Assembly: GCA_030674415.1 (NCBI GenBank)
Contig: JAUSGP010000005.1
Span: 1 to 32,190, forward strand
Direction: 5' to 3'
DNA from: a bacterium
GTDB lineage: Bacteria > Patescibacteriota > Minisyncoccia > Phycocordibacterales > Zambryskibacteraceae
Length of the DNA: 32,190 nucleotides
The stretch's first letter is position 1. Each line of letters starts with the position of its first letter. The notes beneath the pieces are model-generated. The model worked only from the letters and a program-made list of their open reading frames with translations, ran no database searches and was not told the origin of the DNA. A program made the position numbers and the translations under genes. Shown here in pieces: positions 884 through 14,171 of the stretch.

Positions 884-1624
884 ATGTTTGAAAAATACCT
901 CAAAGACATAGGCTTGAGTGATAAAGAAGCTGCCGTCTATTTAGCACTTTTATCTTTTGATAAAGCTCTCGTAACTGAAATAGCCGACAAGGCGAATATC
1001 AAGCGGCCTACTACTTATGTAATTCTTGAAAGTCTAGCCAAGAAAGGTCTTGTTAGTGAAGCCAATATTGGCAAGAAAACTTTTTACATTGCCGAGCCAC
1101 CTGAAAAGTTGGGGCTATTTGTCGAGAGACAAATTCATTTACTGGAGGAAAACAAAAAGAGTCTGGACATTATTGTTCCTCAACTTAAAGGAATTCAGAG
1201 GGAACAGGGAGAAAAACCAGTTGTTCAATTTTTTGAAGGTAAAGAAGGGGTAATAAGTTCTAGCCATAACATTTTCTCAAAAAAGATCAACGATGAACCT
1301 GTATATATAGTCTACTCAAAAGATACGGTTATGGACATGTTTTCAGAAAAGGAGGCGAAAGAGATGCGCGAACTGCGTATCTCTAGAGGAATCAAGTCAA
1401 AAGCAATTTACATCTCCAAAGAGGGGGAGAAACCTTCCGATGAAACAGGAGACAGAATAAAAATAGATGAAAACAAATATCCTATAAAAAGTGACATTAC
1501 CATCTATGGTGATCAGGTGAGAGTGGCAGTATTTGGGAAAAGGCTATCAGGTATTTTCGTAAAGAATCAAGAATTAGCAGACACTTTAAAAAGTCTCATT
1601 AAATATATTTTTGATCATAAATAA
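884..1624 (+). CDS. TrmB-family transcriptional regulator (wHTH plus C-terminal effector domain)
   Basis: GLSDKEAAVYLALL...IKRPTTYVILESLAKKGLV wHTH, then P-x-V-x-FFEGKEG. TGnTATAAT at 869-877 lies 6 nt before the ATG (leaderless). Confidence 0.88.
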   Translation: MFEKYLKDIGLSDKEAAVYLALLSFDKALVTEIADKANIKRPTTYVILESLAKKGLVSEANIGKKTFYIAEPPEKLGLFVERQIHLLEENKKSLDIIVPQLKGIQREQGEKPVVQFFEGKEGVISSSHNIFSKKINDEPVYIVYSKDTVMDMFSEKEAKEMRELRISRGIKSKAIYISKEGEKPSDETGDRIKIDENKYPIKSDITIYGDQVRVAVFGKRLSGIFVKNQELADTLKSLIKYIFDHK

Positions 1625-1627
1625 GAA

Positions 1628-1663
1628 GTGCCGTGGCAGAGAAGTGAATCTCTACCACGGCAC
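1628..1663. terminator. Strong hairpin between convergent transcripts
   Basis: gtgccgtggcagaga-agtgaa-tctctaccacggcac, directly after the TrmB-like stop codon. Confidence 0.7.
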
Positions 1664-1845
1664 AGGTCGGATCAGGCTGTAAGGGAGGGAGTTATCCTAC
1701 CCGCAACCTCTGAACATAAGCGTCATGCACTTCTTTCGTTCTGGCGATGGCTGATGCCCCCGCCTGGCTTGTGAAGAGAATCTGACTCTTGCTTCGATCC
1801 TACGTCCTACACTGGTTGGCGGCCGGACGCACTCCGCCTCGAGTT

Positions 1846-1857
1846 CTAGTCGTTCAC
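1846..1857 (-). other. SD-led minigene GTG-AAC-GAC-TAG
   Basis: Minus strand reads ggaggataaagaa GTG AAC GAC TAG. Confidence 0.4.
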
Positions 1858-1940
1858 TTCTTTATCCTCCACGATCTGTGACTAGAGATAAACTGGAGGC
1901 CTCACAGGGGCGTTGACAACACCCCTGCTCCCCAGCCGCC

Positions 1941-1952
1941 CTAGTCGTGCAT
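1941..1952 (-). other. SD-led minigene ATG-CAC-GAC-TAG
   Basis: Minus strand reads aaggagggttct ATG CAC GAC TAG, about 40 nt downstream of the predicted start site of the 2000-2028 promoter. Confidence 0.45.
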
Positions 1953-1999
1953 AGAACCCTCCTTTTCGCCGGTAACACACCGGGTACTCGCTAGCAGGT

Positions 2000-2028
2000 A
2001 GTATATACCCACTAGTTTTAAATGTCAA
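2000..2028 (-). promoter_or_regulatory. sigma70-type promoter (leftward)
   Basis: TTGACA-17 nt-TATACT on the minus strand. Confidence 0.8.
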
Positions 2029-2165
2029 GTTAGAATAACAAAATTAGTTAGTTTAAGTGTCAATTTTTATCTAGTTTAGTCAGACTCAATTAAATTCTAT
2101 ATTGTACAAAATGGCTATATTTCTAGCTATTTTAAATATTGTATAAGATGAAATGTCAAAACTGC

Positions 2166-2194
2166 TTGACAAAATTACTCTTTAGGTATATACT
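2166..2194 (+). promoter_or_regulatory. sigma70-type promoter driving the array
   Basis: TTGACA (2166-2171), 17 nt spacer, TATACT (2189-2194), with an AT-rich upstream region. Confidence 0.85.
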
Positions 2195-2200
2195 CTCTTT

Positions 2201-2775
2201 GTACCTTGAAATCAGCACTGGTTAGCGACGGCAACCGTCTAGAAAATTATCACGGACCCGCAGTCAGACTGGCTTCAAAAGTACGGTTTCTATCCTGCGG
2301 AGGAACTACGTTCCTCCGCTCCAGAGGCTCAAAAGCCTGTGGGGCGGGGGTGGGTAAGGTGGCCTTAATACCGCATAGGGAGTCTTCCCCTTCAGCAAGG
2401 GAAGTATGCGGAACCAGACGCGAGCACAGACTCGCGGAGGGTAAACCAAGATGGGACGAGTTTTGTGCCTGAAGCCCCGTGAAGCTGCACGGTGTGCTAC
2501 GTCCCAGCCCGAACCCACTCCCCGCGATGTTCTTTTACAAAAAGTGGCTAACACCACTAGAGGACTGGAGGCAGAAGCCACCAAGATCCTCGCTCGGGCA
2601 GGTTTCAAGCCCGATGGCCAACGCAAGTCGATTCGCCGGGAAAGTGTGAGAGCAATCTCCACTCCCTGCGGCGGCAAGCCTGGTTATCGGAGGCGATAAC
2701 CGCCGGGTGCGTCATCTTCGGCCAAGGCACCGAAGTTGCTCCAAAATCCAGGAGTGTAAAAGCATGGGTAAGAAT
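2201..2775 (+). ncRNA. Long structured leader / candidate ncRNA
   Basis: No convincing ORF. Many stems, e.g. ccgcag/ctgcgg, ggaggaac/gttcctcc, ccgcata/tatgcgg, cgcgag/ctcgcg. Long-range pairing of 2344-2355 with 2513-2525 is followed by GTTCTTT at 2529. Confidence 0.55.
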
Positions 2776-2863
2776 GGGTGAGCGGTAAAATATCGCTCGC
2801 CCTCCCATCAAAGCTTTCAAACTTTTGAAAATTTTGATGGGAAATGATTCCCAAATGTTCTTT
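2776..2863 (+). repeat. Array element R1 (hairpin + long palindrome + overlapping hairpin + GTTCTTT)
   Basis: gggtgagcg..cgctcgccc / tcccatcaaa..tttgatggga / gggaa..ttccc / gttcttt. Confidence 0.9.
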
Positions 2864-2875
2864 GGAGATAAAAAG

Positions 2876-3067
2876 ATGCTGAAAAAGATCGGTTTGTCTG
2901 TCCTGTCGGCGTTTTTCGCTGGCGGAGCAGTTCTCTGGTTCTGGGTTGCCTATACGCAATCCAATCCAGAGATGGCGAGGGCGGCTTTCATGATCGCTCT
3001 CGGCCCCACCACGGCCGCAATCCTCTTTGCCCACAAGGCGAGATGGATCAACAAACCCAATCGTTGA
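2876..3067 (+). CDS. Small two-TM membrane protein (array ORF)
   Basis: SD ggag then ATG 2876 directly after R1; two hydrophobic segments. Confidence 0.75.
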   Translation: MLKKIGLSVLSAFFAGGAVLWFWVAYTQSNPEMARAAFMIALGPTTAAILFAHKARWINKPNR

Positions 3068-3090
3068 TGATTGGGTTCCCACCAAAACAT

Positions 3091-3299
3091 GTCCAAGTCG
3101 GTGCAGCGGCTCGAGGACAACAACACTTCATTTAGGGACCTGCGAAAAGCACTGTAAGTGCTACACGGGCCCAGAAAGCTTGAAGTGTACGGTCTCAAAA
3201 GATCGAGATCACTGGGTTCGAATACGGGTGGCTTAGTGCTCTTCCGAAGGAGGTGGCCACAGCCCGTTATTCCATAGAACCTGGACTGCAACGTTCTTT
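3091..3299 (+). ncRNA. Pseudoknot module copy A
   Basis: Hairpin gtccaagtcg-GTGCAG-cggctcgaggac; complementary CTGCA at 3286, then GTTCTTT at 3293. Confidence 0.65.
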
Positions 3300-3303
3300 A
3301 AAA

Positions 3304-3381
3304 GCCGAACTTCGGTTCGGCTTCCATCAGAGTTCTGAAAACTTTCAGAGTTGTGATGGGGAATGTTCCCCGCTGTTCTTT
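3304..3381 (+). repeat. Array element R2
   Basis: gccgaac-ttcg-gttcggc / ttccatca..tgatgggg / ggggaa..ttcccc / gttcttt. Confidence 0.9.
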
Positions 3382-3393
3382 TCAGGAGATTAT

Positions 3394-3714
3394 ATGCCCA
3401 ATACGTTTGCCGAACTGGTCGTCCGGATCAACAATTCGGACAACGGGACTCTGTTCCAGCAGATCTGCGCAATGTTCGCGCAGGTCAGCACGATGGACGC
3501 TAACAGCGTTATCGTGTGCTGGCAGGCTCTCGACATGGTGAGGAGTCTGGACTCCCGCCACGGCTGCACCATTGCAGTCGACAAGCTCCAGCGCGCCTTG
3601 ATTGCCAGGATGCAAGTCCTGAGCAATCAAGAGTTTCCCCACGCCGTCCTCTACAACAGGATGACGCTGCGGGAAAAATTCAGATCAGTAATCGGTCCCG
3701 GGAGAGGGCTGTGA
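3394..3714 (+). CDS. Hypothetical protein (array ORF)
   Basis: SD aggag then ATG 3394 after R2 (MPNTFAELVV...); 106 aa, no recognised family. Confidence 0.75.
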   Translation: MPNTFAELVVRINNSDNGTLFQQICAMFAQVSTMDANSVIVCWQALDMVRSLDSRHGCTIAVDKLQRALIARMQVLSNQEFPHAVLYNRMTLREKFRSVIGPGRGL

Positions 3715-3723
3715 TCTGGGCGC

Positions 3724-3829
3724 CGTCAGTCTCATTAGGTAACTGACGTTAAAGGGAGTTAAGCTGCCCGTCCGTCGTGTAGGACAAAGTGCTGATGACC
3801 AAGCGTCTGCCGGAGCGTCATCCCGGTGC
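3724..3829 (+). ncRNA. Repeated structured module (TTAA..GTTAAGCTG..GTGCTRATGA) plus CGT-loop hairpin, copy 1
   Basis: Homologous to 6218-6323 with compensatory stem changes (cgtcag/ctgacg vs cgtgag/ctcacg; gtcc/ggac vs gcct/aggc). Confidence 0.6.
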
Positions 3830-3900
3830 TGATTCGCAAGAATCGGCTTTCTATCAGAGAACTGAAAAATCAGTCTTCTGACGGGAAGCTGAAACTTCCC
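3828..3900 (+). repeat. Array element R3 (not directly followed by GTTCTTT)
   Basis: gctgattc-gcaa-gaatcggc / tttctatcaga..tctgacgggaa / gggaag..cttccc. Confidence 0.75.
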
Positions 3901-3910
3901 AAAACCAGAG

Positions 3911-4125
3911 GTCCAAGCCGGTGCAGCGGCTCAAGGACTGAGAGAGTTCAAGTTCACCTTTTAAATCCCAACTCTCTGGACGCTCAGAATCTGCTTTTGG
4001 ACTCGTGGAGCAATGCTCGCGAAATCCTAGCAGGAGCGCAAGGTGAATGGTGAACGTAAGTTCATCACCGAGGGCGGCGTGCCAAGCATGACTTGTCACT
4101 CTGCTCCGGACTGCACACGTTCTTT
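3911..4125 (+). ncRNA. Pseudoknot module copy B
   Basis: gtccaagccg-GTGCAG-cggctcaaggac; CTGCAC at 4111; GTTCTTT at 4119. Confidence 0.65.
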
Positions 4126-4140
4126 CTATAGGAGGTGAGT

Positions 4141-4146
4141 ATGTAG
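4141..4146 (+). other. Start-stop minigene ATG-TAG behind a perfect SD
   Basis: aggaggtgagt ATG TAG, followed by the hairpin gtgccggc..gccggcac. Confidence 0.45.
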
Positions 4147-4194
4147 ACGCATACGTGTGCCGGCAGGTTGAGAGCGAGCCGGCACTGTCATTCA

Positions 4195-4275
4195 GCCGAA
4201 CTTCGGTTCGGCTTCCATCAAAGTTTTTAAACTCTTGAAAATTTTGATGGGACAATTCCGTCCCGAAAGTTCTTT
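4195..4275 (+). repeat. Array element R4
   Basis: gccgaac-ttcg-gttcggc / ttccatcaaa..tttgatggga / gggac..gtccc / gttcttt. Confidence 0.9.
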
Positions 4276-4287
4276 GAGGAGAGTGCT

Positions 4288-4662
4288 ATGCAGAATATCA
4301 TCGTTGGCGTGTCTATCCCGGACAACTACCAGATCGGCTCCAAAACCGAAGGTCGGCGGATGGCGGTGCACAGTTGGGATCTCACGAAGAGTGAGAGACT
4401 GACCACCGCCACCTACGGCAGCCGGCAGCACTCAACAACTTGGTTCGAGGACTGCGAAGTTCTCGACGCCGAGGGGGAGCTACCCGAAGCCCTGCACATT
4501 CTCGTCCGCTGTGGGCGTGAGTGGAATGGGTCGATCGGCGGGTCGTCGTGGTTCGCCAGTGAAGCTTTTGTCTCACGAGAACGTGCTGAAGAGTACGTCG
4601 CCAAGTGGGAGTCGGAGCTCAGCTGGTACTGGATCGTCACAACAAGGAGGTGTATCGAGTGA
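4288..4662 (+). CDS. Hypothetical protein (array ORF)
   Basis: SD gaggag then ATG after R4; 124 aa, Trp-rich C-terminus. Confidence 0.8.
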   Translation: MQNIIVGVSIPDNYQIGSKTEGRRMAVHSWDLTKSERLTTATYGSRQHSTTWFEDCEVLDAEGELPEALHILVRCGREWNGSIGGSSWFASEAFVSRERAEEYVAKWESELSWYWIVTTRRCIE

Positions 4663-4693
4663 GTATAGCGTCTGCCGGAGCGTAATCCCGGTA

Positions 4694-4742
4694 CTGTTCA
4701 GAGATGCGTATCTCTGCTGATGAGCTCAAAAGAGCGAAACAG
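4694..4742 (+). ncRNA. Hammerhead ribozyme, type III
   Basis: CUG-UU / stem I cagagat-gcgt-atctctg / CUGAUGA / stem II gctc-aaaa-gagc / GAAA / CAG. Complete canonical core; predicted cut after 4698 (GUU triplet). Confidence 0.85.
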
Positions 4743-4761
4743 AAATTCTTTGAAATTTGGG

Positions 4762-4802
4762 TCCCCATTAGATAATTCAATTTTTGAATTATCTAATGGG
4801 GA
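4762..4802. repeat. Perfect 19-bp inverted repeat (isolated long-palindrome variant)
   Basis: tccccattagataattcaa-ttt-ttgaattatctaatgggga. Confidence 0.85.
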
Positions 4803-4906
4803 GATGTCACTACGCGAGGACAGGGAACAACAGAGCTAGCGTGCTAACGCCACGTGAATACTGCCCGCTGAAACTCCGTGATGCATGACTCTTCCCAAGT
4901 AACACG

Positions 4907-5084
4907 GTCCAGGCCGGTGCAGCGGCCAGAGGACTAGTGGATTCGCTCGCCTGGATTGGTGGGCGGATGGCGACGAGTTCTCGTCGCAACCAGGTATAAG
5001 ACCGGGGGTTCAAATCGCTTCTGAAGGAGGTGCCCCGACCGGTGATAGAGTACCTGGACTGCACACGTTTTACTTTTGTTCTTT
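4907..5084 (+). ncRNA. Pseudoknot module copy C
   Basis: gtccaggccg-GTGCAG-cggccagaggac; CTGCAC at 5059; GTTCTTT at 5078. Confidence 0.65.
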
Positions 5085-5103
5085 CAAAAAGGAGATTAGA
5101 GAG

Positions 5104-5355
5104 ATGATGATCGGCCTTTCGAACTCGGAAGCCAGGGCTCGTTTGGTTGAGGGTGTGGTGTCCGACGATCGTCGCGACATCATCGGGCCGAACGGCCTGA
5201 AGTACAAGGTCAAGAACTACCTTGTACCCACCCTCATCCCAGGAGAGAAGGTGCGGTTCATTCCGCATCAGCGCTCCTGGAAGAGTCAGACCTATGCCGG
5301 CGAGGTCTGGCTGCAAAACGAGCGCCATCGCCGGCGCAAACCCGATCCTTCGTGA
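5104..5355 (+). CDS. Small hypothetical protein, possibly OB-fold/cold-shock-like (array ORF)
   Basis: SD aaggag after GTTCTTT 5078. The V.G.V...L.PGEKVRF pattern loosely recalls small OB folds. Confidence 0.65.
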   Translation: MMIGLSNSEARARLVEGVVSDDRRDIIGPNGLKYKVKNYLVPTLIPGEKVRFIPHQRSWKSQTYAGEVWLQNERHRRRKPDPS

Positions 5356-5422
5356 TCGGGTTCCCATCAAAGTTTTCAAATCATTGAAGATTTTGATGGG
5401 AAATGATTCCCAAATGTTCTTT
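5340..5422 (+). repeat. Array element R5
   Basis: acccgatc..gatcgggt (overlaps the upstream stop codon) / tcccatcaaa..tttgatggga / gggaa..ttccc / gttcttt. The 3' part is nearly identical to R1. Confidence 0.9.
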
Positions 5423-5440
5423 ACAACAGGAGAAGAGATA

Positions 5441-6205
5441 ATGAGAATTCTGGTAATTGACGACAACCCTCTTCATCATGCAAGTGCTCGGCAGACGCTC
5501 GGTGGCCACGAGGTCACGATCGTCGGCACGTACGACGAGGCGCACAAGCTCCTTGAGGAGCCGAGAGCGCACTGGAAAGCCGTGAATGATGAACTGGAAC
5601 GCCGCGGCTTCAAGAACCCATACGCGCCGAACATGACCGCGGAAGAGCGGGCGGCGGCGCGGGCCGAAGAGAAGCGCATTGAGCAGGAGCTCTGTCCGCC
5701 TCCGCCGTTCGAAGCCGTTCTCTCTGACTTGCTCATGCCAGCAAGCAGGATGACCATGGGTCCGGAAGGAGAGAAGTACATCGGGCAGGAAATGCCGGTG
5801 GGCTTCGCTCTCTCGCTCATGGCGGCTCTTCACGCGAAGTACGTGGCGGTCGTGACGGCAACCAACCATCACAACCATCCGGCCTCCGCCATGCTCGACG
5901 CCTTTGAGTCGAGATGCACCCACGAGCACGATTCGGTAGGCAAGCCCCCTCGTTTTGTCATCAACGGAGCGCGTGTCGGTTTCTACCACGCGCCGATGAC
6001 ATTCGTGGAGGGTACCACCTGTCCGGATTGCGGCGGCAGCGGCGACAAGGAGGTCTGCTACTGCGTCGAGCGCAACGCCGGCGTGGCCAAGCCTGATTGC
6101 GACACCTGCAAAGGTGCCGGCCGTCAGTGTTGGACTTGCCGCAATACCGGCAAGCAGTGGGGCAAGGACTGGGGCAAGGTCCTAACTCATATCACTGCTG
6201 GATAG
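5441..6205 (+). CDS. Receiver-like domain protein with C-terminal CxxCxGxG zinc-finger repeats
   Basis: MRILVIDD start and LSDLLMP phospho-acceptor-like motif; CPDCGGSG, CDTCKGAG, CWTCRNTG. SD aggag then ATG 5441. Confidence 0.8.
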   Translation: MRILVIDDNPLHHASARQTLGGHEVTIVGTYDEAHKLLEEPRAHWKAVNDELERRGFKNPYAPNMTAEERAAARAEEKRIEQELCPPPPFEAVLSDLLMPASRMTMGPEGEKYIGQEMPVGFALSLMAALHAKYVAVVTATNHHNHPASAMLDAFESRCTHEHDSVGKPPRFVINGARVGFYHAPMTFVEGTTCPDCGGSGDKEVCYCVERNAGVAKPDCDTCKGAGRQCWTCRNTGKQWGKDWGKVLTHITAG

Positions 6206-6217
6206 CGGTGATAGCCC

Positions 6218-6323
6218 CGTGAGGCTTATCAGATAACTCACGTTAATGAGCGTTAAGCTGCTCGCCTGTTGTGTAAGGCAAAGTGCTAATGATCTGACGT
6301 CCGCCGGAGCGTCATCCCGGTAC
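6218..6323 (+). ncRNA. Repeated structured module plus CGT-loop hairpin, copy 2
   Basis: Homologous to 3724-3829; followed by GTTCTTT at 6325. Confidence 0.6.
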
Positions 6324-6333
6324 TGTTCTTTCC

Positions 6334-6412
6334 GCCGAACCTCGGTTCGGCTCCTACCAGAGTTCTGAAAAACTTCAGAATTGTGGTGGGACAATCCCGT
6401 CCCCTGTTCTTT
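6334..6412 (+). repeat. Array element R6
   Basis: gccgaac-ctcg-gttcggc / tcctacca..tggtggga / gggac..gtccc / gttcttt. Confidence 0.9.
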
Positions 6413-6421
6413 GAGGAAAAA

Positions 6422-6559
6422 ATGAAGAAGAAAATTCTTCGACTGCCTCGCGCACCACTACCGCGCCAGACTGGTGGATACCACAGTCCGGACAAGGGTC
6501 GCGGTGCCTACAACCGCCAGCATGAAAAACTGGCCACCAAAAAGGAGACGCAGGAATGA
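6422..6559 (+). CDS. 45-aa basic peptide resembling alternative ribosome-rescue factor ArfA
   Basis: Manual translation: MKKKILRLPRAPLPRQTGGYHSPDKGRGAYNRQHEKLATKKETQE. SD gagg; PLxRQ...KGxGxYxR pattern. Below the ORF-track size cut-off. Confidence 0.6.
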   Translation: MKKKILRLPRAPLPRQTGGYHSPDKGRGAYNRQHEKLATKKETQE

Positions 6560-6768
6560 TGATGAAAACGATCCCGCAGCAGGTTCAGCGTCCTCGCGTT
6601 CACCAGCCACTGTTTCTGAAACAGAAGCTCGTCTGCTCGATGTGCAAGGTTAGGGAAGTGATCCCGCCGATTGCCGTCTGCTCGCCCTGCTTACAAATCC
6701 TCAACCAGAGGCGCAAGGAAGCAGAGAAGAGTGGGCGTCCGTGGTGGCGGCGATGGTTCTGGGGCTAA
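6556..6768 (+). CDS. Small zinc-binding protein (CxxC...CxxC) with PWWRRWF tail
   Basis: ATGA overlap with the upstream peptide; SD aaggag; CSMC and CSPC. Confidence 0.7.
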   Translation: MMMKTIPQQVQRPRVHQPLFLKQKLVCSMCKVREVIPPIAVCSPCLQILNQRRKEAEKSGRPWWRRWFWG

Positions 6769-6802
6769 ATCACCCAGCGTCTTCCGGAGCGTCATCCCGG
6801 TA

Positions 6803-6851
6803 CTGTTCAGAGATGCGTATCTCTGCTGACGAAGTCGAAAGACAGAAACAG
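6803..6851 (+). ncRNA. Hammerhead ribozyme, type III (variant stem II)
   Basis: Stem III/I identical to the 4694 copy; CUGACGA; a-gtc-gaaa-gac-a (A.A mismatch at the base of stem II); GAAA-CAG. Confidence 0.7.
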
Positions 6852-6870
6852 ATGTTCTTTAAAAAAAATC

Positions 6871-7130
6871 TGCCTGCTTCCCAGAAAGTTCCTGAAATAT
6901 ATTCGGTACTTTTCTGGGGCGCAGGTATGGACAGATACCTTGGACGCCCGGGAAGCCTCCCACCCAATAACCACCTTAAGTCTGACGAGACAAGAGGAGA
7001 ATGGTTATTTGGTTAAAAATCGACCTTGACTTCGCGCTGGTCGATTAGGCCGCTCTTTGCAGGGATCGGAATAGGCATTCCTAAAGGTCTCGGATGATGC
7101 AACATTTGAGACCACTGTCCACCGTTCTTT
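6871..7130 (+). ncRNA. Long palindrome plus multi-stem non-coding domain
   Basis: tgcctgc..cccagaaa/tttctggg..gcaggta at 6871-6927. tggacag (6928) pairs with ctgtcca (7115), enclosing several hairpins, then GTTCTTT at 7124. Confidence 0.5.
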
Positions 7131-7132
7131 TT

Positions 7133-7214
7133 GCCGAACTCATGTTCGGCTTCCGTAAAAGTTTTTAAATCATTGAAAATTTTTACGGGACAATTTGGTC
7201 CCAACCTGTTCATT
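7133..7214 (+). repeat. Array element R7
   Basis: gccgaac-tcat-gttcggc / ttccgtaaaa..ttttacggga / gggac..gtccc / gttcatt variant. Confidence 0.88.
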
Positions 7215-7239
7215 TCATCATCAGAAGGATGGCTTGGCT

Positions 7240-7599
7240 ATGGAAAAGAAGTTTGTTCTCTCTATTGTCGAATCCGAGAATACGAAGTATGGGTATAACC
7301 CATGTGAGTGCTCGGATTGCACCCACTGGAGTATCAACTTCGAGCCCTCGGCAGACGAGGCGGCGGTGAAGGAGCTTTGCGATTTCGTCAATCGAGTATC
7401 TCACTCGAAAGGCAAAATCAAGGAGCTTGGGGAGAAGGAGTGCAAATTCCTGTCGGCCCTTTTGGGAATCAACATCACAGGAGGTCTTCCTTATGTTGAA
7501 GCTAGATACTGGGAATACCAGGAACCTAGACCCGAACCGCCACCATCATCTGTTTCCGAGGCATTCCGGAGGTTGCACAATCTTAAGCGGGGATCCTAG
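7240..7599 (+). CDS. Hypothetical protein with CxCxxC motif (array ORF)
   Basis: ATG 7240 after R7; PCECSDC. Confidence 0.75.
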   Translation: MEKKFVLSIVESENTKYGYNPCECSDCTHWSINFEPSADEAAVKELCDFVNRVSHSKGKIKELGEKECKFLSALLGINITGGLPYVEARYWEYQEPRPEPPPSSVSEAFRRLHNLKRGS

Positions 7600-7635
7600 T
7601 GAATCCATAAGCTAGGGCGAGACCGCAGTGCATAT

Positions 7636-7725
7636 GGGTGAGCGGCAAAATATCGCTCGCCCTCCCATCAGAGTTTTTCAAAAATTGGAAAGTTCTGATG
7701 GGACAATAGTGTCCCTGTGTTCTTT
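7636..7725 (+). repeat. Array element R8
   Basis: First hairpin nearly identical to R1 / tcccatcaga..tctgatggga / gggaca..tgtccc / gttcttt. Confidence 0.9.
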
Positions 7726-7746
7726 CACAGCCTAAGGAGTGCGTCC

Positions 7747-8199
7747 ATGAAAAGCGTTGAAAAAGAGTTACCAGAAGTCTACGGGATCATCTCCCGCGAC
7801 CACGCCCAAAACGGCAAGAACAGCGCTGTCTCCAAGTACGTGAACGGCGGGTGTACCTCGGATTCAGCAGAGCCAGTACTGGCACTCGTGATGCCCTATT
7901 TCGAGAGCTACGAGATGTCCAGGCTCCTCGCTCTGTATGATGCGGTCTGGAGCGCTCATCAAGTCGGTCTGTTGCACCACATCAATTTCAGCAACAGGAA
8001 GATCAGAGAGGAGGCGCGCAAGTACGGCATCTCTGATGATCGGGTGTGGCCAGCGAAGCTCGTGGACATCGAGGAAATCAGCGTGGGCGACCCGGAGGAT
8101 ATCGGGTCTGCCATTGCGGAGATCCTCAGTGTCCTCATGAAAATGAGAGACATGGAGAGCTTCCTCGAGACTCGCGCCGATCAACTTCTGAGTTCTTAG
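7747..8199 (+). CDS. Hypothetical protein (array ORF)
   Basis: SD taaggag then ATG 7747 (MKSVEKELPE...); 150 aa. Confidence 0.8.
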   Translation: MKSVEKELPEVYGIISRDHAQNGKNSAVSKYVNGGCTSDSAEPVLALVMPYFESYEMSRLLALYDAVWSAHQVGLLHHINFSNRKIREEARKYGISDDRVWPAKLVDIEEISVGDPEDIGSAIAEILSVLMKMRDMESFLETRADQLLSS

Positions 8200-8236
8200 G
8201 AATAAAATACGTCCACTGGCGCGTAAGCCCAGTATC

Positions 8237-8329
8237 GTCCGAGGAAGTCATATATCCTCGGACTTCCTTCAGAGAATTTAACTTCGGTTGAATGTTCTGA
8301 AGGAACGAATGGTTCGTTCCATGTTCTTT
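8237..8329 (+). repeat. Array element R9
   Basis: gtccgagga..tcctcggac / ttccttcaga..tctgaaggaa / ggaacgaa..ttcgttcc / gttcttt. Confidence 0.88.
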
Positions 8330-8343
8330 GAGGAGATAAAAAG

Positions 8344-8733
8344 ATGGAAACAGAAAAGGATTTGTTCGAGCTTGAAATGGAGGAGAAGCGGAAGCAGGAA
8401 CCTCCGATCTCATCCGATAACCCCGCACCCTTCAAACAGCCGTTTCTGGTCATTACGTTCAAAGATCAGAAAATCCACGGCAACGTTGCCGACGGCTGGC
8501 ACGTCGAAGTCGACGGTCAGATTCAGAAGTACTTCGAAGAATTCACGGAGCGCACTCTCGAATGGGCTCCGCCGTTCAATTCAATGCACCGCGCGACGCC
8601 GCTTCTGAGGAGCATCGTCGAGTACTTCGCGAGCCGTGGCATGGAGGTCGCGAGTGTGGCCACGTACGCCGGATCGGCTGGCCCATCACATGTACTGAGG
8701 AACGGGGCGTTCTTCAAGCGCATGAGGTTCTAA
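8344..8733 (+). CDS. Hypothetical protein (array ORF)
   Basis: SD gaggag then ATG; 129 aa. Confidence 0.8.
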   Translation: METEKDLFELEMEEKRKQEPPISSDNPAPFKQPFLVITFKDQKIHGNVADGWHVEVDGQIQKYFEEFTERTLEWAPPFNSMHRATPLLRSIVEYFASRGMEVASVATYAGSAGPSHVLRNGAFFKRMRF

Positions 8734-8754
8734 CGTTCATTAAAAGGAGGTAAT

Positions 8755-8853
8755 ATGCCACCGGATTCAAAAGGGATAGCTGAGCGGCCCGATTCAAGAC
8801 TCAGCCCTAGATCTTCGAGGTTTAGAGAGGTAACGGTACGTGCCTTCACGTGA
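8755..8853 (+). CDS. 32-aa peptide (array ORF)
   Basis: gttcatt, then SD aaggagg, then ATG: MPPDSKGIAERPDSRLSPRSSRFREVTVRAFT. Confidence 0.45.
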   Translation: MPPDSKGIAERPDSRLSPRSSRFREVTVRAFT

Positions 8854-8864
8854 TCCGACCTAAT

Positions 8865-8959
8865 GGGGAAGAACCAAAACTTGGCCAACCTTCCCCTTTC
8901 ATCTAAGGTTTTAGAAAATTGAAATTTTAGATGAGAGAATAGTTCTCTCAATGTTCTTT
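8865..8959 (+). repeat. Array element R10 (most divergent copy)
   Basis: ggggaag..cttcccc / ctttcatctaa..ttagatgagag / tgagagaa..ttctctca / gttcttt. Confidence 0.8.
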
Positions 8960-8974
8960 GAGAAAAGAGGTGTC

Positions 8975-9298
8975 ATGTATCGAAGGATCGAACCTCCAGG
9001 CAGCTCGGCTATGACTCTTGGTTGCGAGGCAATGTGTCAGTCTGGTCTTCCGGATCCCCGCGGTTGGGTTCAAGGCACTCGACCAGTCGAATATTTCTTC
9101 ACCGAATACGGCTGGCGCAAAAGCGGTCATGCAGTTCTGAGCGAAATTCGCTCAAAGGGTGTTATCGCCAAAGTGATCGCAGTGAAGGAAAGGGACCCTC
9201 GTATCCATGTTCGCTACCAGGACAAGTGGCAAGTGATTGTCACCTGGGGATGTCGAAAGGAACATAACTCCAAACGAAGGGTATCAACCCAAAACTAG
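8975..9298 (+). CDS. Hypothetical protein (array ORF)
   Basis: SD gaggtg then ATG 8975 (MYRRIEPP...FFTEYGWRK...). Confidence 0.75.
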   Translation: MYRRIEPPGSSAMTLGCEAMCQSGLPDPRGWVQGTRPVEYFFTEYGWRKSGHAVLSEIRSKGVIAKVIAVKERDPRIHVRYQDKWQVIVTWGCRKEHNSKRRVSTQN

Positions 9299-9307
9299 GA
9301 GTGAGAA

Positions 9308-9508
9308 ATGTTCTTCGATAACCATGAAATTTTGGTCCAGGGTTCCACGCTTGTAGGTATTCAGAATGTAACCTTGCTTTGCAAGATTCACGACGAGCTC
9401 GAGCTCCTAATCATCGACACCCAAGCAATAGTGCCCGGCAAGATCGTTCGTTTAAGATGTCCGTATTGCAGAATGCTTGGCTACCTGATCACTAGCAAAG
9501 CTGAGTAA
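9308..9508 (+). CDS. Small putative zinc-ribbon protein
   Basis: SD aggag; CKIH...CPYC. Confidence 0.6.
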   Translation: MFFDNHEILVQGSTLVGIQNVTLLCKIHDELELLIIDTQAIVPGKIVRLRCPYCRMLGYLITSKAE

Positions 9509-9518
9509 TAACTTGATC

Positions 9519-9598
9519 GGGCAAACTATGTTTGCCCTTCCGTCAGAGAGCTGAAAGATTTCAGAATTCTGACGGGACAATTCCGTCCCGTGTTCTTT
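9519..9598 (+). repeat. Array element R11
   Basis: gggcaaac-tat-gtttgccc / ttccgtcaga..tctgacggga / gggac..gtccc / gttcttt. Confidence 0.9.
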
Positions 9599-9619
9599 GA
9601 GTGAAGAGGAAGTGAAAGA

Positions 9620-9883
9620 ATGGAACAGCATCTGTCGGTTGCTCAAGCCGCAAGCGAAGTAATCCAACACGCCTGCGAGAATTTCTCTACCACGAGCCGA
9701 CAAGACGAACTTTGTGGAGAGATCCTCGCCGCTCTCACGATTGCGGCCAGGGTAGACATCCAGGCAAGGGAGCGCCACGCCTTTGTCTCTAGATGGCAAT
9801 CGCTTCTTCCGGAAGTCCTTCGTGCCAACGGAAGAGCGGTTTTTGCAGTCATCGTGGAGCAGAAGCTAGAAGAACTCCTTTAA
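9620..9883 (+). CDS. Hypothetical protein (array ORF)
   Basis: SD gagga then ATG after R11; 87 aa, predicted helical. Confidence 0.75.
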   Translation: MEQHLSVAQAASEVIQHACENFSTTSRQDELCGEILAALTIAARVDIQARERHAFVSRWQSLLPEVLRANGRAVFAVIVEQKLEELL

Positions 9884-9912
9884 ACAAACGTTCATCGGCA
9901 CGTAAGCCCGGT

Positions 9913-10001
9913 TCCGAGGAAACCATAAATCCTCGGGTTTCCTTAAAAGATTTTCTAACAGGAAATTTTTTAAGGGGACAATTCCGTCCCAACTGTTCTT
10001 T
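9913..10001 (+). repeat. Array element R12
   Basis: tccgagga..tcctcggg (like R9) / tttccttaaaa..ttttaagggga / gggac..gtccc / gttcttt. Confidence 0.88.
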
Positions 10002-10013
10002 GAGGAAAATACG

Positions 10014-10358
10014 ATGAGAATGATTCTGTGTCTTTGTTTTCTGTCCGTTGCTCTCGTCGCGGCGCAAGAACCGGCGCAACAACCGGTATTCCCCGCACTG
10101 ACCGAGCCGGCTTACGTCGGCGTCGGCCAGGTTGATCTCAAGAAGATTTCCTTGAGGTCGGCACGCGACTTGGGCATCATCCGGGCGCAGGGAGCGCTCG
10201 CACGCGCAATCTGCGACCCGAACAACGAGAAGGAGCGCGTCCGCGCTTTCATCGTTGGCAAGCGTCATACCGACGAACTTCGAGTCGGTGACGTGCTCTG
10301 GGTCCGTATCTGGATCCGGAAGGACGAGGTCGAGGTGGACAAAGTCTGCCTCGACTGA
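10014..10358 (+). CDS. Secreted hypothetical protein (signal peptide)
   Basis: MRMILCLCFLSVALVAA-QEP signal peptide; SD gagga. Confidence 0.75.
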   Translation: MRMILCLCFLSVALVAAQEPAQQPVFPALTEPAYVGVGQVDLKKISLRSARDLGIIRAQGALARAICDPNNEKERVRAFIVGKRHTDELRVGDVLWVRIWIRKDEVEVDKVCLD

Positions 10359-10388
10359 AACGGAAACGAATTCATTTTTGGAGGGTGT

Positions 10389-10676
10389 ATGCAACAGAGT
10401 GTGCTCGGCGAACTCATCACGCTCATTTTGGTCATCGTGATCATGCTCGGAGGCATGACAATGATCGTGGGCGGCCCGTCTCTTACGGGACGGTGGTACC
10501 GGTGGATCTTCCGAACTGTAGTACTCGCTCCCCTCGGTTGGGGGCTGCGCCAGATCGGCAGAGGCGTCGAGTGGCTCCTACGATGGAGCGCCCGACAACT
10601 CGGACGACTCCTACTCTATCTCGCTCGACTCACGGGCAGAGGTATCCACTACGCCTGGGTCAGGTTAACCACCTGA
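10389..10676 (+). CDS. Small membrane protein
   Basis: SD gaggg; N-terminal TM segment, then an Arg/Trp amphipathic tail. Confidence 0.7.
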   Translation: MQQSVLGELITLILVIVIMLGGMTMIVGGPSLTGRWYRWIFRTVVLAPLGWGLRQIGRGVEWLLRWSARQLGRLLLYLARLTGRGIHYAWVRLTT

Positions 10677-10738
10677 CCCAGTTTTGTCATATTCTAAGCC
10701 ATATTTTGATAAATTAGAGGTAAAAATAGACAATATAC

Positions 10739-10775: not shown

Positions 10776-10976
10776 ATGCAGGCGTTTATCGTCGGCACCA
10801 GGACGGTCGTCAGCAACTTCGTTGACGGCACCCGAATCGTGGAGCAGAGGTTTCGGGAAACCGAAGCGGATGCTCTTGCTCACGCTCTGTGGCTCGAAAG
10901 CCACGGCAAGCGTGAGGAAGCTGTGGAATATCTGGACGACTACCTCCAGAGACACCCAGCCCCGACTCGCCACTAA
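10776..10976 (+). CDS. Small hypothetical protein
   Basis: 66-aa ORF directly behind its own promoter (probably leaderless). Confidence 0.6.
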   Translation: MQAFIVGTRTVVSNFVDGTRIVEQRFRETEADALAHALWLESHGKREEAVEYLDDYLQRHPAPTRH

Positions 10977-12826: not shown

Positions 12827-13987
12827 TTAATTTTCTTCTGGAGCTGGAACCTCGGCAGTAGCAAGTTCTTCTCCACGCGCAGACTGAATGTCGATCTTCC
12901 AGCCGGTAAGCTTGGCCGCCAGACGCACGTTCTGTCCGCCCTTGCCGATTGCGAGAGACTGCTGATCTTCAGCAACAATCACGGATGCAGCTTTTTCTTC
13001 TTCGTTTATTTTAATGTCCAAAACCTTAGCCGGGGAGAGAGCTTCTTCAATAAACTTCTTCGGCTCGGCTGACCATTCGATGATGTCAATCTTCTCACCG
13101 CGGAGCTCACTCATGACAGTAGATACACGTACCCCACGCTGGCCGACCAGAGCGCCGATTGGGTCGATATGAGTGTCTACGGCTTGTGCGGCAATCTTGG
13201 AGCGGTAACCCGCTTCTCGGGCAATAGCCTTGATAACTATTGCGCCACTCGCCAGTTCCGGGGCTTCCGCTTCGAAGAGCTTCTCAAGAAACTTCGGATG
13301 AGAGCGGGAAAGTCTGAGGAAGACTCCGCGCGGAGACTCTTCCACTCTATAGAGATAAGCGCGCACGCGTTCGCCTTGGCTGAAGCGCTCACTCGGTATC
13401 TGCTCCTCGTAGGCTAGAAGACCCGTAGCCCGACCCATGTCTACGAAGATATTGCCGCGCTCTATCCTCTGGACGGTGCCGTTCACTATCTCGCCTTCAC
13501 GCTTACCGAATTCGGACACGACAGAAGTTTTCTCCGCCTCACGAATCTTCTGCATGATCACTTGCTTAGCCGTTTGTGCGGCGATGCGACCATACTCACC
13601 CTTAGACTCAATAGGGAAAATAATTTCTTCATCGATCTGGGCGTCCTTCTTAATCTTACGCGCATCTTCAAGGAGGATATGATGCTCCGGATTGTAGACA
13701 ACTCTTTCATCTGCTGAAACAACCGCTTCGTCAACTTCACTTTCTGGAGTTTCTTCGTCTTCAAATATAACGCGTGATTCATCCACCACAATTTTCACCT
13801 GGAAGAAATTAGTTTCCCCAGTCGACAGGTCGAAGGAGGTACGGATAATCTGACCCTTCTTGCCGTACTCCTTCTTATAAGCGGTAGCGAGAGCGGCTTC
13901 AATGGCTTCGATGATCGAGGCCCGCGGAATACCGCGGGCTTCTTCAAGCTCGCTTAGGACTGAATTGATGACTTTGAGATCAAACAT
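12827..13987 (-). CDS. nusA: Transcription termination/antitermination factor NusA
   Basis: GRIAAQTAKQVI, S1 domain, AREAGYRSK, VGQRG, AIGKGGQNVRLA. Start taken at ATG 13987. Confidence 0.97.
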   Translation of the reverse strand: MFDLKVINSVLSELEEARGIPRASIIEAIEAALATAYKKEYGKKGQIIRTSFDLSTGETNFFQVKIVVDESRVIFEDEETPESEVDEAVVSADERVVYNPEHHILLEDARKIKKDAQIDEEIIFPIESKGEYGRIAAQTAKQVIMQKIREAEKTSVVSEFGKREGEIVNGTVQRIERGNIFVDMGRATGLLAYEEQIPSERFSQGERVRAYLYRVEESPRGVFLRLSRSHPKFLEKLFEAEAPELASGAIVIKAIAREAGYRSKIAAQAVDTHIDPIGALVGQRGVRVSTVMSELRGEKIDIIEWSAEPKKFIEEALSPAKVLDIKINEEEKAASVIVAEDQQSLAIGKGGQNVRLAAKLTGWKIDIQSARGEELATAEVPAPEEN

Positions 13988-14171
13988 GTTGGTTTTGGTT
14001 ACGAAATGGGTTCGCCTCACGGCGAACCCACCTCAAGCAAACTTATTACTTATTTACTCTACCAAATGCCTTTAGGGTTTGTCAACTCCCTACGGTCGTT
14101 AGCTTCAGGTTCACTCGGACTCTAAAAACAAAGCGCCGAAGCGAAAGCTGAGGCGGTCTTTCATTTTGTAT

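Follow-up and report, generated by a model that had tools for sequence, protein, structure and literature searches.

Two type III hammerhead ribozymes, at 4694–4742 and 6803–6851, lie in an operon of orphan genes in a window of 32,190 nt (the whole stretch of DNA that was analyzed). We think it reasonably probable, though far from assured, that these genuine hammerheads cut the operon RNA, that the GTTCTTT motif associated with them is boxA-like and not a scar, that the hammerhead is an optional module, and that an A10.1·A11.1 mismatch combined with U17 marks a subclass of the family. The hammerhead is a textbook ribozyme whose role in bacteria is still largely obscure. In the present case, from a bacterial group that is very large and little understood, hammerheads have a fixed place, with a gene-end hairpin before them and a boxA-like signal after them. 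This placement offers a concrete connection, open to experiment, between self-cleaving RNA and antitermination.

Identification of two type III hammerheads

An earlier note on this DNA had called both elements type III hammerheads; its sequence statements all check out on re-reading the window, and the assignment is borne out by a model built from relatives only and by covariation. Order and spacing of the core (CUGANGA ... GAAA, with position 7 variable) are right in copy 1 (4694–4742, forward strand, canonical core, CUGAUGA) and in copy 2 (6803–6851, forward strand, CUGACGA). Both copies have the A15.1-U16.1 pair and a residue other than G at H17 (U17 in each). Stem I is identical in the two (CAGAGAU-GCGU-AUCUCUG) and stem III (CUGU/ACAG) is likewise common to both, with stem II reading GCUC-AAAA-GAGC in copy 1 and A-GUC-GAAA-GAC-A in copy 2; the G10.1-C11.1 pair that closes stem II is present in copy 1, and its place is taken by A·A in copy 2. 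Hammerhead numbering assigns the predicted cuts to 4698/4699 and 6807/6808. The pattern CTGANGA-N8-30-GAAAC occurs twice in the window, only at the two hammerheads (0.49 expected; two matches were reached by 7 of 100 shuffles).

A covariance model of the hammerheads of 17 relatives (R2), which contained neither the window sequence nor the A·A variant, scored copy 1 at 71.9 bits (E = 2.5 × 10−18) and copy 2 at 55.6 bits (E = 1.1 × 10−13). The next best R2 match in the window (10304–10363, 16.1 bits) lies inside an ORF, has a non-consensus core and was dismissed as chance. Six other matches to the core pattern in this genome were also rejected, being equal in number to those of the reversed-pattern control; with model R1, the matches in this genome are limited to the two copies in the window. 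At gathering score, Rfam returned nothing in the whole window, nothing but tRNAs in eight loci of relatives and nothing in two viral loci; in E-value mode, positions 1600–4700 gave only a chance miRNA match. Checked against the Rfam hammerhead models, copy 1 matched Hammerhead_3 at 24.5 bits (cut-off of 48.5), a low score probably explained by the Rfam alignment leaving stem III unpaired, and copy 2 had no match even at E = 10. Folding energies were not unusual (z = −1.83 and −0.68 for copies 1 and 2, respectively). Rfam alone is therefore weak here, and the identity of both hammerheads is decided by comparative evidence; because the subfamily escapes the Rfam threshold, it is missed by standard annotation.

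Covariation and distribution of the family

Covariation among 22 aligned family members supports three helices around the core, with stems I and II capped by loops and stem III open: 98.8% of stem cells were paired (80.1% in shuffles, 23 to 47% in slid controls), changes on both sides compensated each other at 9 of the 15 stem pairs, and the covariation score (0.552 versus 0.187) was reached by none of 500 shuffles. Model R1 had matches, often clustered, in 7 of 37 genomes of the genus and 36 of 151 of the order. Position 17 across 61 Patescibacteria sites was C (41), A (11) or U (9), and never G. At least 120 stretches of viral contigs match as well; among the matches listed, all 74 sites parsed were type III, and the architecture seen here (a 7- to 8-bp stem I with a UGNGU-type loop, a 4-bp stem II with an NAAA loop and stem III CUGU/ACAG) is abundant among them. 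Sequence and covariation place both elements among true type III hammerheads, in a subfamily that phages have in common with this bacterial order. They share with phage and bacterial type III hammerheads (Rfam RF00008, clan CL00010) the core, the three-helix topology, the open stem III, an H17 that is never G and covarying stems; they differ from RF00008 in the score of copy 1, below the gathering cut-off, and in the A10.1·A11.1 with U17 of copy 2. Unlike the phage ribozymes, those of Patescibacteria are followed by a boxA-like motif (GTTCTTT was near 0 of 74 G·C-type phage sites parsed, among the matches listed).

The A10.1·A11.1 variant and U17

The A·A variant was found at 6 of the 61 Patescibacteria sites and at one in a further genome, G323 (0 in the reversed-pattern control), with three versions of inner stem II (AGUC/GACA, AGGC/GCCA and AGCC/GGCA). 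At least three bacterial families have it, as do 17 stretches of viral contigs, with compensating substitutions in stems I and II; the 13 viral stretches that were parsed all have an intact 8-bp stem I that differs among them. U17 was present at 15 of 20 A·A sites versus 6 of 129 others (the sites are related, so a P value overstates the association), and it accompanies A·A even in phage hammerheads with no GTTCTTT nearby. U·U mismatches at 10.1/11.1 also occur in the order (three examples). Recurrence of A·A with covarying neighbors points to a natural variant and not to decay, and the mismatch is no argument against hammerhead membership. Copy 2 is assigned to a conserved A10.1·A11.1 plus U17 subclass, and copy 1 looks like a chimera that combines the 5′ half of this subclass with a canonical stem II.

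Copy 2 had been suspected of being slow or inactive. Inactivity is unlikely given the conservation of the subclass, and slower cleavage is still a possibility: section 8 of PMC3088659 describes U·U as the most active of the mispaired combinations at 10.1/11.1, so A·A may be slow. The natural U10.1-U11.1 variants in the same section are like copy 2 in tolerating a mispair where stem II is otherwise most conserved, and unlike it in that here the mismatch is A·A and is coupled to U17. A literature search returned no paper on A·A coupled to U17, although the supplements of that article (alignments, Figures S6 to S8) may list A·A variants. The A·A/U17 core is thereby defined as a natural variant and is a candidate for altered kinetics or metal use.

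A probable operon with one strong promoter

The window represents one contig from a Patescibacteria (Parcubacteria-type) genome, that of an ultra-small groundwater bacterium. The stretch from ∼2200 to 10690 is GC-richer and probably forms a single operon, in which orphan genes and structured RNAs are served by one promoter. A sigma-70-like promoter on the forward strand (2166–2194, TTGACA-17-TATACT, 11 of 12 matches) is the only strong one reading into this island, and the promoter scan found no internal promoters (strong promoter count of 1). The leader (2201–2542) is conserved, with matches in three relatives (G036, G021 and G016) among the genomes compared at the DNA level. A strong intrinsic terminator on the same strand (10655–10681; an 11-bp stem, then TTTTGTC) probably ends the ∼8.5-kb transcription unit, and the terminator scan counted 25 terminator-like hairpins versus 9.9 expected. 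None of 13 island ORFs had a Pfam or PHROG family above cut-off, and 4200–7000 had no blastn match to GenBank phages; ORF 10776–10976 had sub-threshold matches only (TPR_14, Peptidase_M48 and TPR_6). The hammerheads lie 36 and 39 nt downstream of the stops of two forward-strand orphan ORFs, 4288–4662 (124 aa, no Pfam or PHROG family) and 6556–6768 (70 aa, two CxxC pairs, with an ortholog on contig C32 of G021), so predicted cleavage would set the 3′ ends of those mRNAs.

Hairpin H and an optional hammerhead

A hairpin, here called H (CCGGAGCGT(A/C)ATCCCGGTA), has four matches in the window (0.02 expected), all on the forward strand. It stands directly 5′ of hammerhead 1 (4675–4693, CCGG-9-nt loop-CCGG) and of hammerhead 2 (6784–6802), and at both of these occupied sites it is followed by CTGTT|C and a full hammerhead core (4694 and 6803). 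The pattern search also found it with no hammerhead at 3810–3828, followed by CTGATTC, and at 6304–6322, followed by CTGTTCTTT (6323–6331), i.e., an “empty” site (6304–6331) of hairpin and boxA-like motif. The stem of H shows compensatory changes in relatives (CCAG/CTGG and CTGG/CCAG), and the evidence for the hairpin rests on these, because scoring sites for any hairpin immediately before stem III was uninformative: 54 of 61 sites scored positive, but so did 59% of random positions. Among viral contigs, the hairpin pattern was found in nine stretches, seven of them in unrelated contexts and two (L011 and L017) with only the preceding GTC..TCTA in common. Of the occupied-versus-empty pattern proposed earlier, the two states stand (hairpin H occurs at 21 sites in the genus, 10 with a hammerhead and 11 without), and a mere GTTC duplication scar is unlikely, GTTC being part of a conserved motif. 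Behind the ortholog of ORF 6556–6768 in G021, hairpin H is followed by no hammerhead, and the next module starts directly after GTTC. We take the hammerhead to be an optional module between hairpin H and the boxA-like site, gained or lost among relatives.

GTTCTTT as a boxA-like motif

In ribosomal RNA operons, boxA is a short sequence signal that sustains transcription by RNA polymerase. The heptamer GTTCTTT occurs 17 times on the forward strand, all within 2529–10001 (starting at 2529, 2857, 3293, 3375, 4119, 4269, 5078, 5416, 6325, 6406, 6854, 7124, 7719, 8323, 8953, 9592 and 9995), and 19 times on both strands of the window (6.8 expected; reached by 0 of 100 shuffles), with no enrichment on the other 35 contigs of the genome. 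T precedes its G at 13 of the 17 sites, and most heptamers have a short hairpin just before and a Shine-Dalgarno site or the next RNA module just after. The first seven letters of the published boxA search string GYTCTTTAANA (PMC5725501, Methods) are matched by 17 of 17 and all 11 letters by 2 of 17 (3293 and 6854), the second of these being GTTCTTTAAAA (6854–6864, forward strand), a full match after hammerhead 2; after hammerhead 1, the heptamer has one mismatch (ATTCTTT, 4747–4753, forward strand). Across the family, a heptamer with no more than one mismatch lies 2 to 6 nt 3′ of stem III behind 45 of 61 Patescibacteria hammerheads (versus 3.1% of random windows), in the extended, A-rich-tailed form wGTTCTTTrAAAA. 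GTTCTTT is thus most likely a boxA-like NusB/NusE site rather than a target-site duplication. Two further candidates were rejected: integron attC, whose core-site consensus has purines where the motif has pyrimidines, and which finds no inverse core upstream; and a helix between GUUCUUU and the 3′ side of stem II plus loop II, which several copies could form and which shows no covariation, since the heptamer stays constant though stem II changes (GCCG/CGGC in L061).

Similar motifs precede ribosomal RNA genes of the lineage. Six of eight 16S leaders fetched were in the right orientation (five of the genus, one from another family of the order), and all six have CTTT(G/A)A after a hairpin, including TGTTCTTTAAAA and GCTCTTTAAAAAA; exact GTTCTTT (TGTTCTTT) is present in one, and the others have GTAC, GATC, GGTC or GCTC. 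In this genome, the 16S gene is truncated by the end of a contig. The window sites resemble rRNA-operon boxA (PMC3177189 and PMC5725501) in that the heptamer is the start of GYTCTTTAANA, a hairpin stands before it and similar motifs occur in 16S leaders of the genus; unlike it, the putative site is repeated 17 times in a protein-coding operon and often touches the ribosome-binding site. NusB is encoded in this genome (contig C27, 119 bits) and NusA in the window (12827–14020), and UGUUCUUUAAAA-type RNA is a candidate NusB-S10 ligand of the lineage. The Rho RNA-binding domain was not found in this genome or in five near-complete genomes of the genus. The lineage thus seems to be without Rho, and the classical anti-Rho role of boxA may not apply.

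Alternative explanations

The earlier note had read GTTC as a recombination or insertion junction, with hammerhead cassettes inserted under duplication of GTTC and cutting inside the junction motif, an account that we consider unlikely. It draws on the coexistence in the window of empty GGTA-CTGTTC-TTT and occupied GGTA-CTGTTC-(ribozyme)-(G/A)TTC-TTT, between whose short repeats a deletion would restore the empty site exactly, and on YTG(A)TTC following the hairpin at three of five H sites with no hammerhead, together with the direct junction at GTTC in G021. However, the flanking GTTC repeat, seen in both window copies and in other U17/C1.1 members, is not general: in 41 of the 61 family members the sequence at the cut is CUGUC (on the 5′ side) and contains no GTTC, and the cut falls inside GTTC in the window copies only because U17 is followed by C1.1. 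U17, moreover, is a trait of the A·A subclass even in phages, whose parsed G·C-type sites are free of GTTCTTT, and the extended motif keeps its spacing after the ribozyme across many families; such conservation at a fixed spacing fits a functional site better than a scar. It is also quite improbable that decay has left copy 2, and maybe copy 1 too, as a relic that does not cleave and that only the hairpins and GTTCTTT matter. A·A does replace the most conserved stem pair, copy 2 goes unrecognized by Rfam and minimum-free-energy folding is unremarkable, but the mismatch recurs with compensatory changes in several bacterial families and in viral stretches, and the other core positions are all intact.

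We regard it as rather unlikely that GTTCTTT serves something other than antitermination, either by forming the U-rich end of a weak terminator or attenuator or by acting as a Nus-dependent translational repressor as at suhB, where Nus binding to a boxA near the start represses translation (PMC5725501). The terminator scan flags many sites of the type “short hairpin + GTTCTTT”, for 12 of the 17 heptamers a start codon is no more than about 25 nt away, and the search of genus genomes gave no Rho; nevertheless, a plain U-tract would not be expected to be an invariant heptamer (17 of 17 exact), non-coding modules too have the motif in front of them (at 3293, 6325, 6854 and 7124), and inside the island there is no promoter from which transcription could start again. 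The chance is slight that the pair excises a 2,109-nt RNA (4699–6807), maybe ligated to a retrozyme- or viroid-like circle. About 62 nt are common to both copies with only three differences (hairpin, 5′ strand of stem III and stem I), so that joining the cut ends would rebuild a complete ribozyme, but Perreault et al. report that no circular or spliced products were detected for clustered bacterial hammerheads (PMC3088659), and the genes of the segment have no DNA-level relatives flanked alike in 61 genomes searched.

Proposed mechanism and comparison with known clusters

Under the favored reading, that of self-cleaving modules followed by boxA-like sites, motif identity, covariation, distribution and associations are observed, and from them we infer cleavage, RNA ends and Nus binding. 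Among the sequencing runs listed as containing this DNA, none is an RNA run. The growing polycistronic transcript is probably cleaved by the hammerheads behind U4698 and U6807. Hammerhead chemistry would leave the message on the upstream side ending in hairpin H, CUGUU and a 2′,3′-cyclic phosphate, and the downstream RNA would begin with a 5′-OH and the folded ribozyme. The boxA-like site behind nearly every module, each hammerhead included, may load NusB/NusE; once a module or a cut has been passed, it probably equips RNA polymerase anew against the many terminator-like hairpins. A tentative extension, on which we would not rely, is that each cleavage detaches the growing RNA from a Nus complex that was loaded further upstream and that the boxA 2 to 6 nt behind the ribozyme reloads NusB/NusE. 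One promoter could in this way drive an ∼8.5-kb, hairpin-dense operon into separately ended RNAs, with the A10.1·A11.1 plus U17 core as a tuned, probably slower ribozyme at chosen junctions.

Clustered hammerheads that cut polycistronic RNAs are documented, with tandems cutting ∼2-kb native fragments in vitro as expected (PMC3088659). The present arrangement is like the clusters of Perreault et al. (2011) in placing several ribozymes between small genes of a single operon; unlike here, the examples given in the available part of that paper are prophage or conjugative-element genes of cultivated bacteria, and that part mentions neither the boxA partner nor the gene-end hairpin seen here (PMC3088659). 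When DNA contigs X1 and X2 were compared with the window, nothing relevant to RNA ends or to occupied and empty alleles emerged; breaks fell at repeated modules, with extra depth over 4670–4763 and small pieces in X2.

Hammerhead identity and distribution

Comparative evidence from sequence settles both window ribozymes as hammerheads; the class is known, and the two members here are new. By hammerhead numbering, copy 1 (plus strand, 4694-4742) comprises stem III (CUGU/ACAG), U17, stem I (CAGAGAU-GCGU-AUCUCUG), the core CUGAUGA, stem II (GCUC-AAAA-GAGC) and GAAA; copy 2 (6803-6851) is the same except for its core (CUGACGA) and stem II (A-GUC-GAAA-GAC-A). What the earlier note had stated about the sequence of the hammerheads, hairpins and GTTC motifs was all correct on re-check. 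Searching the window against Rfam at gathering score gave no match (below it, RF00008 found copy 1 alone, at 24.5 bits), no hammerhead in the loci of eight relatives reached the Rfam threshold, and MFE z-scores of the window hammerheads were unremarkable. Sites in fetched loci were chosen by core pattern and an upstream TGT[ACT] or CCT[ACT] triplet, not by pairing. In an alignment of 22 distinct hammerheads (excluding a near-identical duplicate from genome G016 and a copy from G041 with a long stem II insert), 98.8% of stem cells were paired, versus 80.1% when shuffled and 23-47% when partners were slid; compensatory changes occurred in 9 of 15 pairs, and the sole unpaired cells were four A.A mismatches at 10.1/11.1. 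A covariance model (R2) trained on 17 relatives, with window and A.A sequences left out, scored copy 1 at 71.9 bits and copy 2 at 55.6, the third-best window match reaching 16.1. Covariation and these scores bear out the proposed pair of type III hammerheads.

By a second covariance model (R1), the family occurs in 7/37 genomes of the genus and 36/151 sampled in the order, often clustered, and clustering of hammerheads within an operon is an arrangement already described (PMC3088659). Hammerheads of the same architecture abound in viral contigs (at least 120 stretches; type III at 74/74 parsed sites). On one 3.7-kb contig (G117:C54; loci L067 and L088), nearly all small genes are set apart by a hairpin, a hammerhead and a heptamer (GATCTTT or GCTCATT); of its six model matches, three carry A.A and one has 30 nt inserted in stem II. 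Among the sequencing runs listed as containing this DNA, none was of RNA. Contigs of the DNA run X1 reach a summed depth of ∼95 across the hairpin-hammerhead module (4670-4763) versus ∼22 nearby, and loose contig ends there run on into GATCTTTAAAC-type sequence, which indicates that other genomes in the sample contribute related hammerhead-boxA modules of their own.

A maintained A.A/U17 subclass

Across 61 distinct sites the 10.1/11.1 pair was G-C in 52, A.A in six and U.U in three. A pattern search of 401 genomes of the order recovered A.A copies in this genome (G000), G117 (three copies) and G323 (reversed-pattern control: 0), and within the genus they also occur in G021, G016 and G022. Inner stem II of these copies reads AGUC/GACA, AGGC/GCCA or AGCC/GGCA, and stem I varies among them. 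Viral contigs added 17 further stretches; in the 13 viral A.A sites parsed, the 8-bp stem I was always intact and differed in sequence. U17 was found at 15/20 A.A sites versus 6/129 others (the sites are related, and p-values overstate), or at 7/12 A.A sites counted per distinct stem I sequence. Judged from these sequences, A.A/U17 is a maintained subclass and not decay. The earlier note had suggested that copy 2 may be “slow or inactive”; recurrence with differing stems in bacteria and viral contigs speaks against decay. A.A hammerheads may be slower, since Perreault et al. (PMC3088659, section 8) describe U.U alone at 10.1/11.1 and call it the most active mispair. A literature search, supplements not covered, found no paper on the A.A variant, and the subclass looks undescribed in print. 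Copy 1 joins the hairpin, U17 and stem I of the A.A subclass (∼62 nt, three differences from copy 2) to a canonical stem II, which suggests recent recombination or gene conversion.

GTTCTTT as a probable boxA-like partner

The published boxA search string is GYTCTTTAANA (PMC5725501). Its first seven letters were matched by all 17 island GTTCTTT sites, 13 of which have a T before the G, and all 11 letters at 3293 and 6854, the latter directly behind hammerhead 2. Eight 16S leaders were fetched and the six in the right orientation used; in each, a hairpin is followed by a CTTT(G/A)A motif (TGTTCTTTAAAA, GCTCTTTAAAAAA, GATCTTTGAC, GTACTTTGAAAA, GTACTTTGACAA, GGTCTTTGACAA), with an exact match in one only. 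The leader of G000 is absent from this comparison because its 16S rRNA is partly assembled and broken by an ORF-bearing insertion (C9, 5150-5594, minus strand). NusB is encoded on contig C27 and NusA within the window.

Within 16 nt past stem III, GTTCTTT was found exactly at 25/61 sites across the order and with at most one mismatch at 45/61 (random windows: 0.6% and 3.1%), with the consensus wGTTCTTTrAAAA and a most frequent spacing of 2 nt. No phage site of the same hammerhead type had it (0/74). Given these matches, the spacing and the absence in phages, GTTCTTT would be a functional partner peculiar to these bacterial islands, neither ribozyme part nor scar. Searches of G000 and five near-complete genus genomes found no Rho RNA-binding domain, so any antitermination would work on signals of the intrinsic (hairpin) type; the island has 25 candidates for these versus 9.9 expected. 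Translational repression by Nus binding beside the ribosome-binding site, for which PMC5725501 provides a basis, is a live alternative. Hammerhead-boxA pairing in Patescibacteria was not found described in a literature search exclusive of supplements; the tight pairing, like the A.A/U17 subclass, looks undescribed in print.

Presence and absence at gene-end hairpins

Hairpin H (CCGG-9 nt loop-CCGG), directly 5′ of both hammerheads, follows ACGTC, marks gene ends generally and is backed by compensatory stem changes (CCAG/CTGG, CTGG/CCAG). The occupied and empty sites noticed earlier recur in relatives: a hammerhead comes next at 10 of 21 genus sites of H or its loop variant H′, and is missing at the other 11, five of them H and six H′. 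In H′ (CYGGCGCGTMAGCCCRG; at 8216-8232 in the window, and six times among G016, G021 and G036) a hammerhead is never next, and TATCGTCCGAGG plus a hairpin follows at most sites. A conserved element E of ∼100 nt (...GTGTAGGACAAAGTGCTGATGACC...; ∼3725-3809 and ∼6225-6303; at least seven genus genomes), probably a 3′-end or standalone RNA, often sits before H. It is followed by H and a hammerhead in G014, G016 and G021, by H alone at 3810, 6304 and on G021:C32, and by plain intrinsic terminators in G027 and G003. On G021:C32, the ortholog of ORF 6556-6768 (82% DNA identity) has E and H next and no ribozyme. With H sites both occupied and empty among relatives, the polymorphism is real at the sequence level.

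Eight nucleotides (TACTGTTC) are identical between the empty site at 6321 and the occupied ones, which fits gain or loss between short repeats. In the window copies, the 5′ GTTC corresponds simply to positions G16.2-U16.1-U17-C1.1 of a U17-type hammerhead, and phage members of that subclass show it too, with no heptamer nearby. Of the original proposal of insertion and cleavage at GTTC, presence/absence is real and the short repeats in the window fit, but as a general rule it fails, since 41/61 sites would be cut after GUC.

We infer the following mechanism as a whole from sequence. Transcription from the promoter at 2166 would run through a conserved leader and meet the first boxA-like site at 2529, with Nus loading again at every module. 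Co-transcriptional cleavage at 4698/4699 and 6807/6808 would leave upstream ORF RNAs ending in hairpin H and a cyclic phosphate (for the chemistry, see PMC10250234); both downstream RNAs would begin with a folded ribozyme, then boxA, then structured non-coding RNA instead of an ORF.

Island setting

The window spans contig C36 in full; its genome is 485 kb and 80% complete. The island (∼2200-10690) holds 16 small ORFs, all on the plus strand, with mean GC 0.555 versus 0.472 for eleven flanking genes; none of the 13 scanned had an above-threshold match to a Pfam or PHROG family. Between the ORFs lie structured RNAs and hairpin modules that recur, behind a single strong promoter (2166-2194) and with strong terminators at 10655 and 11085 only. 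By blastn of the island against 61 relatives, matches were mosaic and came from 16 genomes including G000 itself. A 254-aa orphan protein (5441-6205; no Pfam or PHROG family) has four CxxC-type pairs (CPDCGGSG...CYC...CDTCKGAG...CWTC) in its C-terminal 60 residues. At 4119-4146, a boxA-like heptamer and strong Shine-Dalgarno precede a start-stop mini-ORF (ATG directly followed by TAG). On the minus strand, ∼340 nt with no notable ORF and no Rfam match lie between a strong promoter of sigma-70-like type (2028-2000) and a terminator hairpin of 15 bp (1663-1628); this stretch is a candidate for a non-coding RNA transcribed divergently from the island.

A repeated RNA of 180-245 nt without an Rfam match (3086-3299, 3906-4125, 4902-5084; minus strand of L030:9863-10106 and L031:7514-7755) conserves its 5′ hairpin and 3′ end around a variable interior, and in G021 and G016 lies immediately 3′ of hammerhead and boxA. 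Its 5′ hairpin loop GUGCAG is complementary to a 3′ CUGCAC just upstream of the boxA-like heptamer, a pairing that resembles a leader-trailer clamp.
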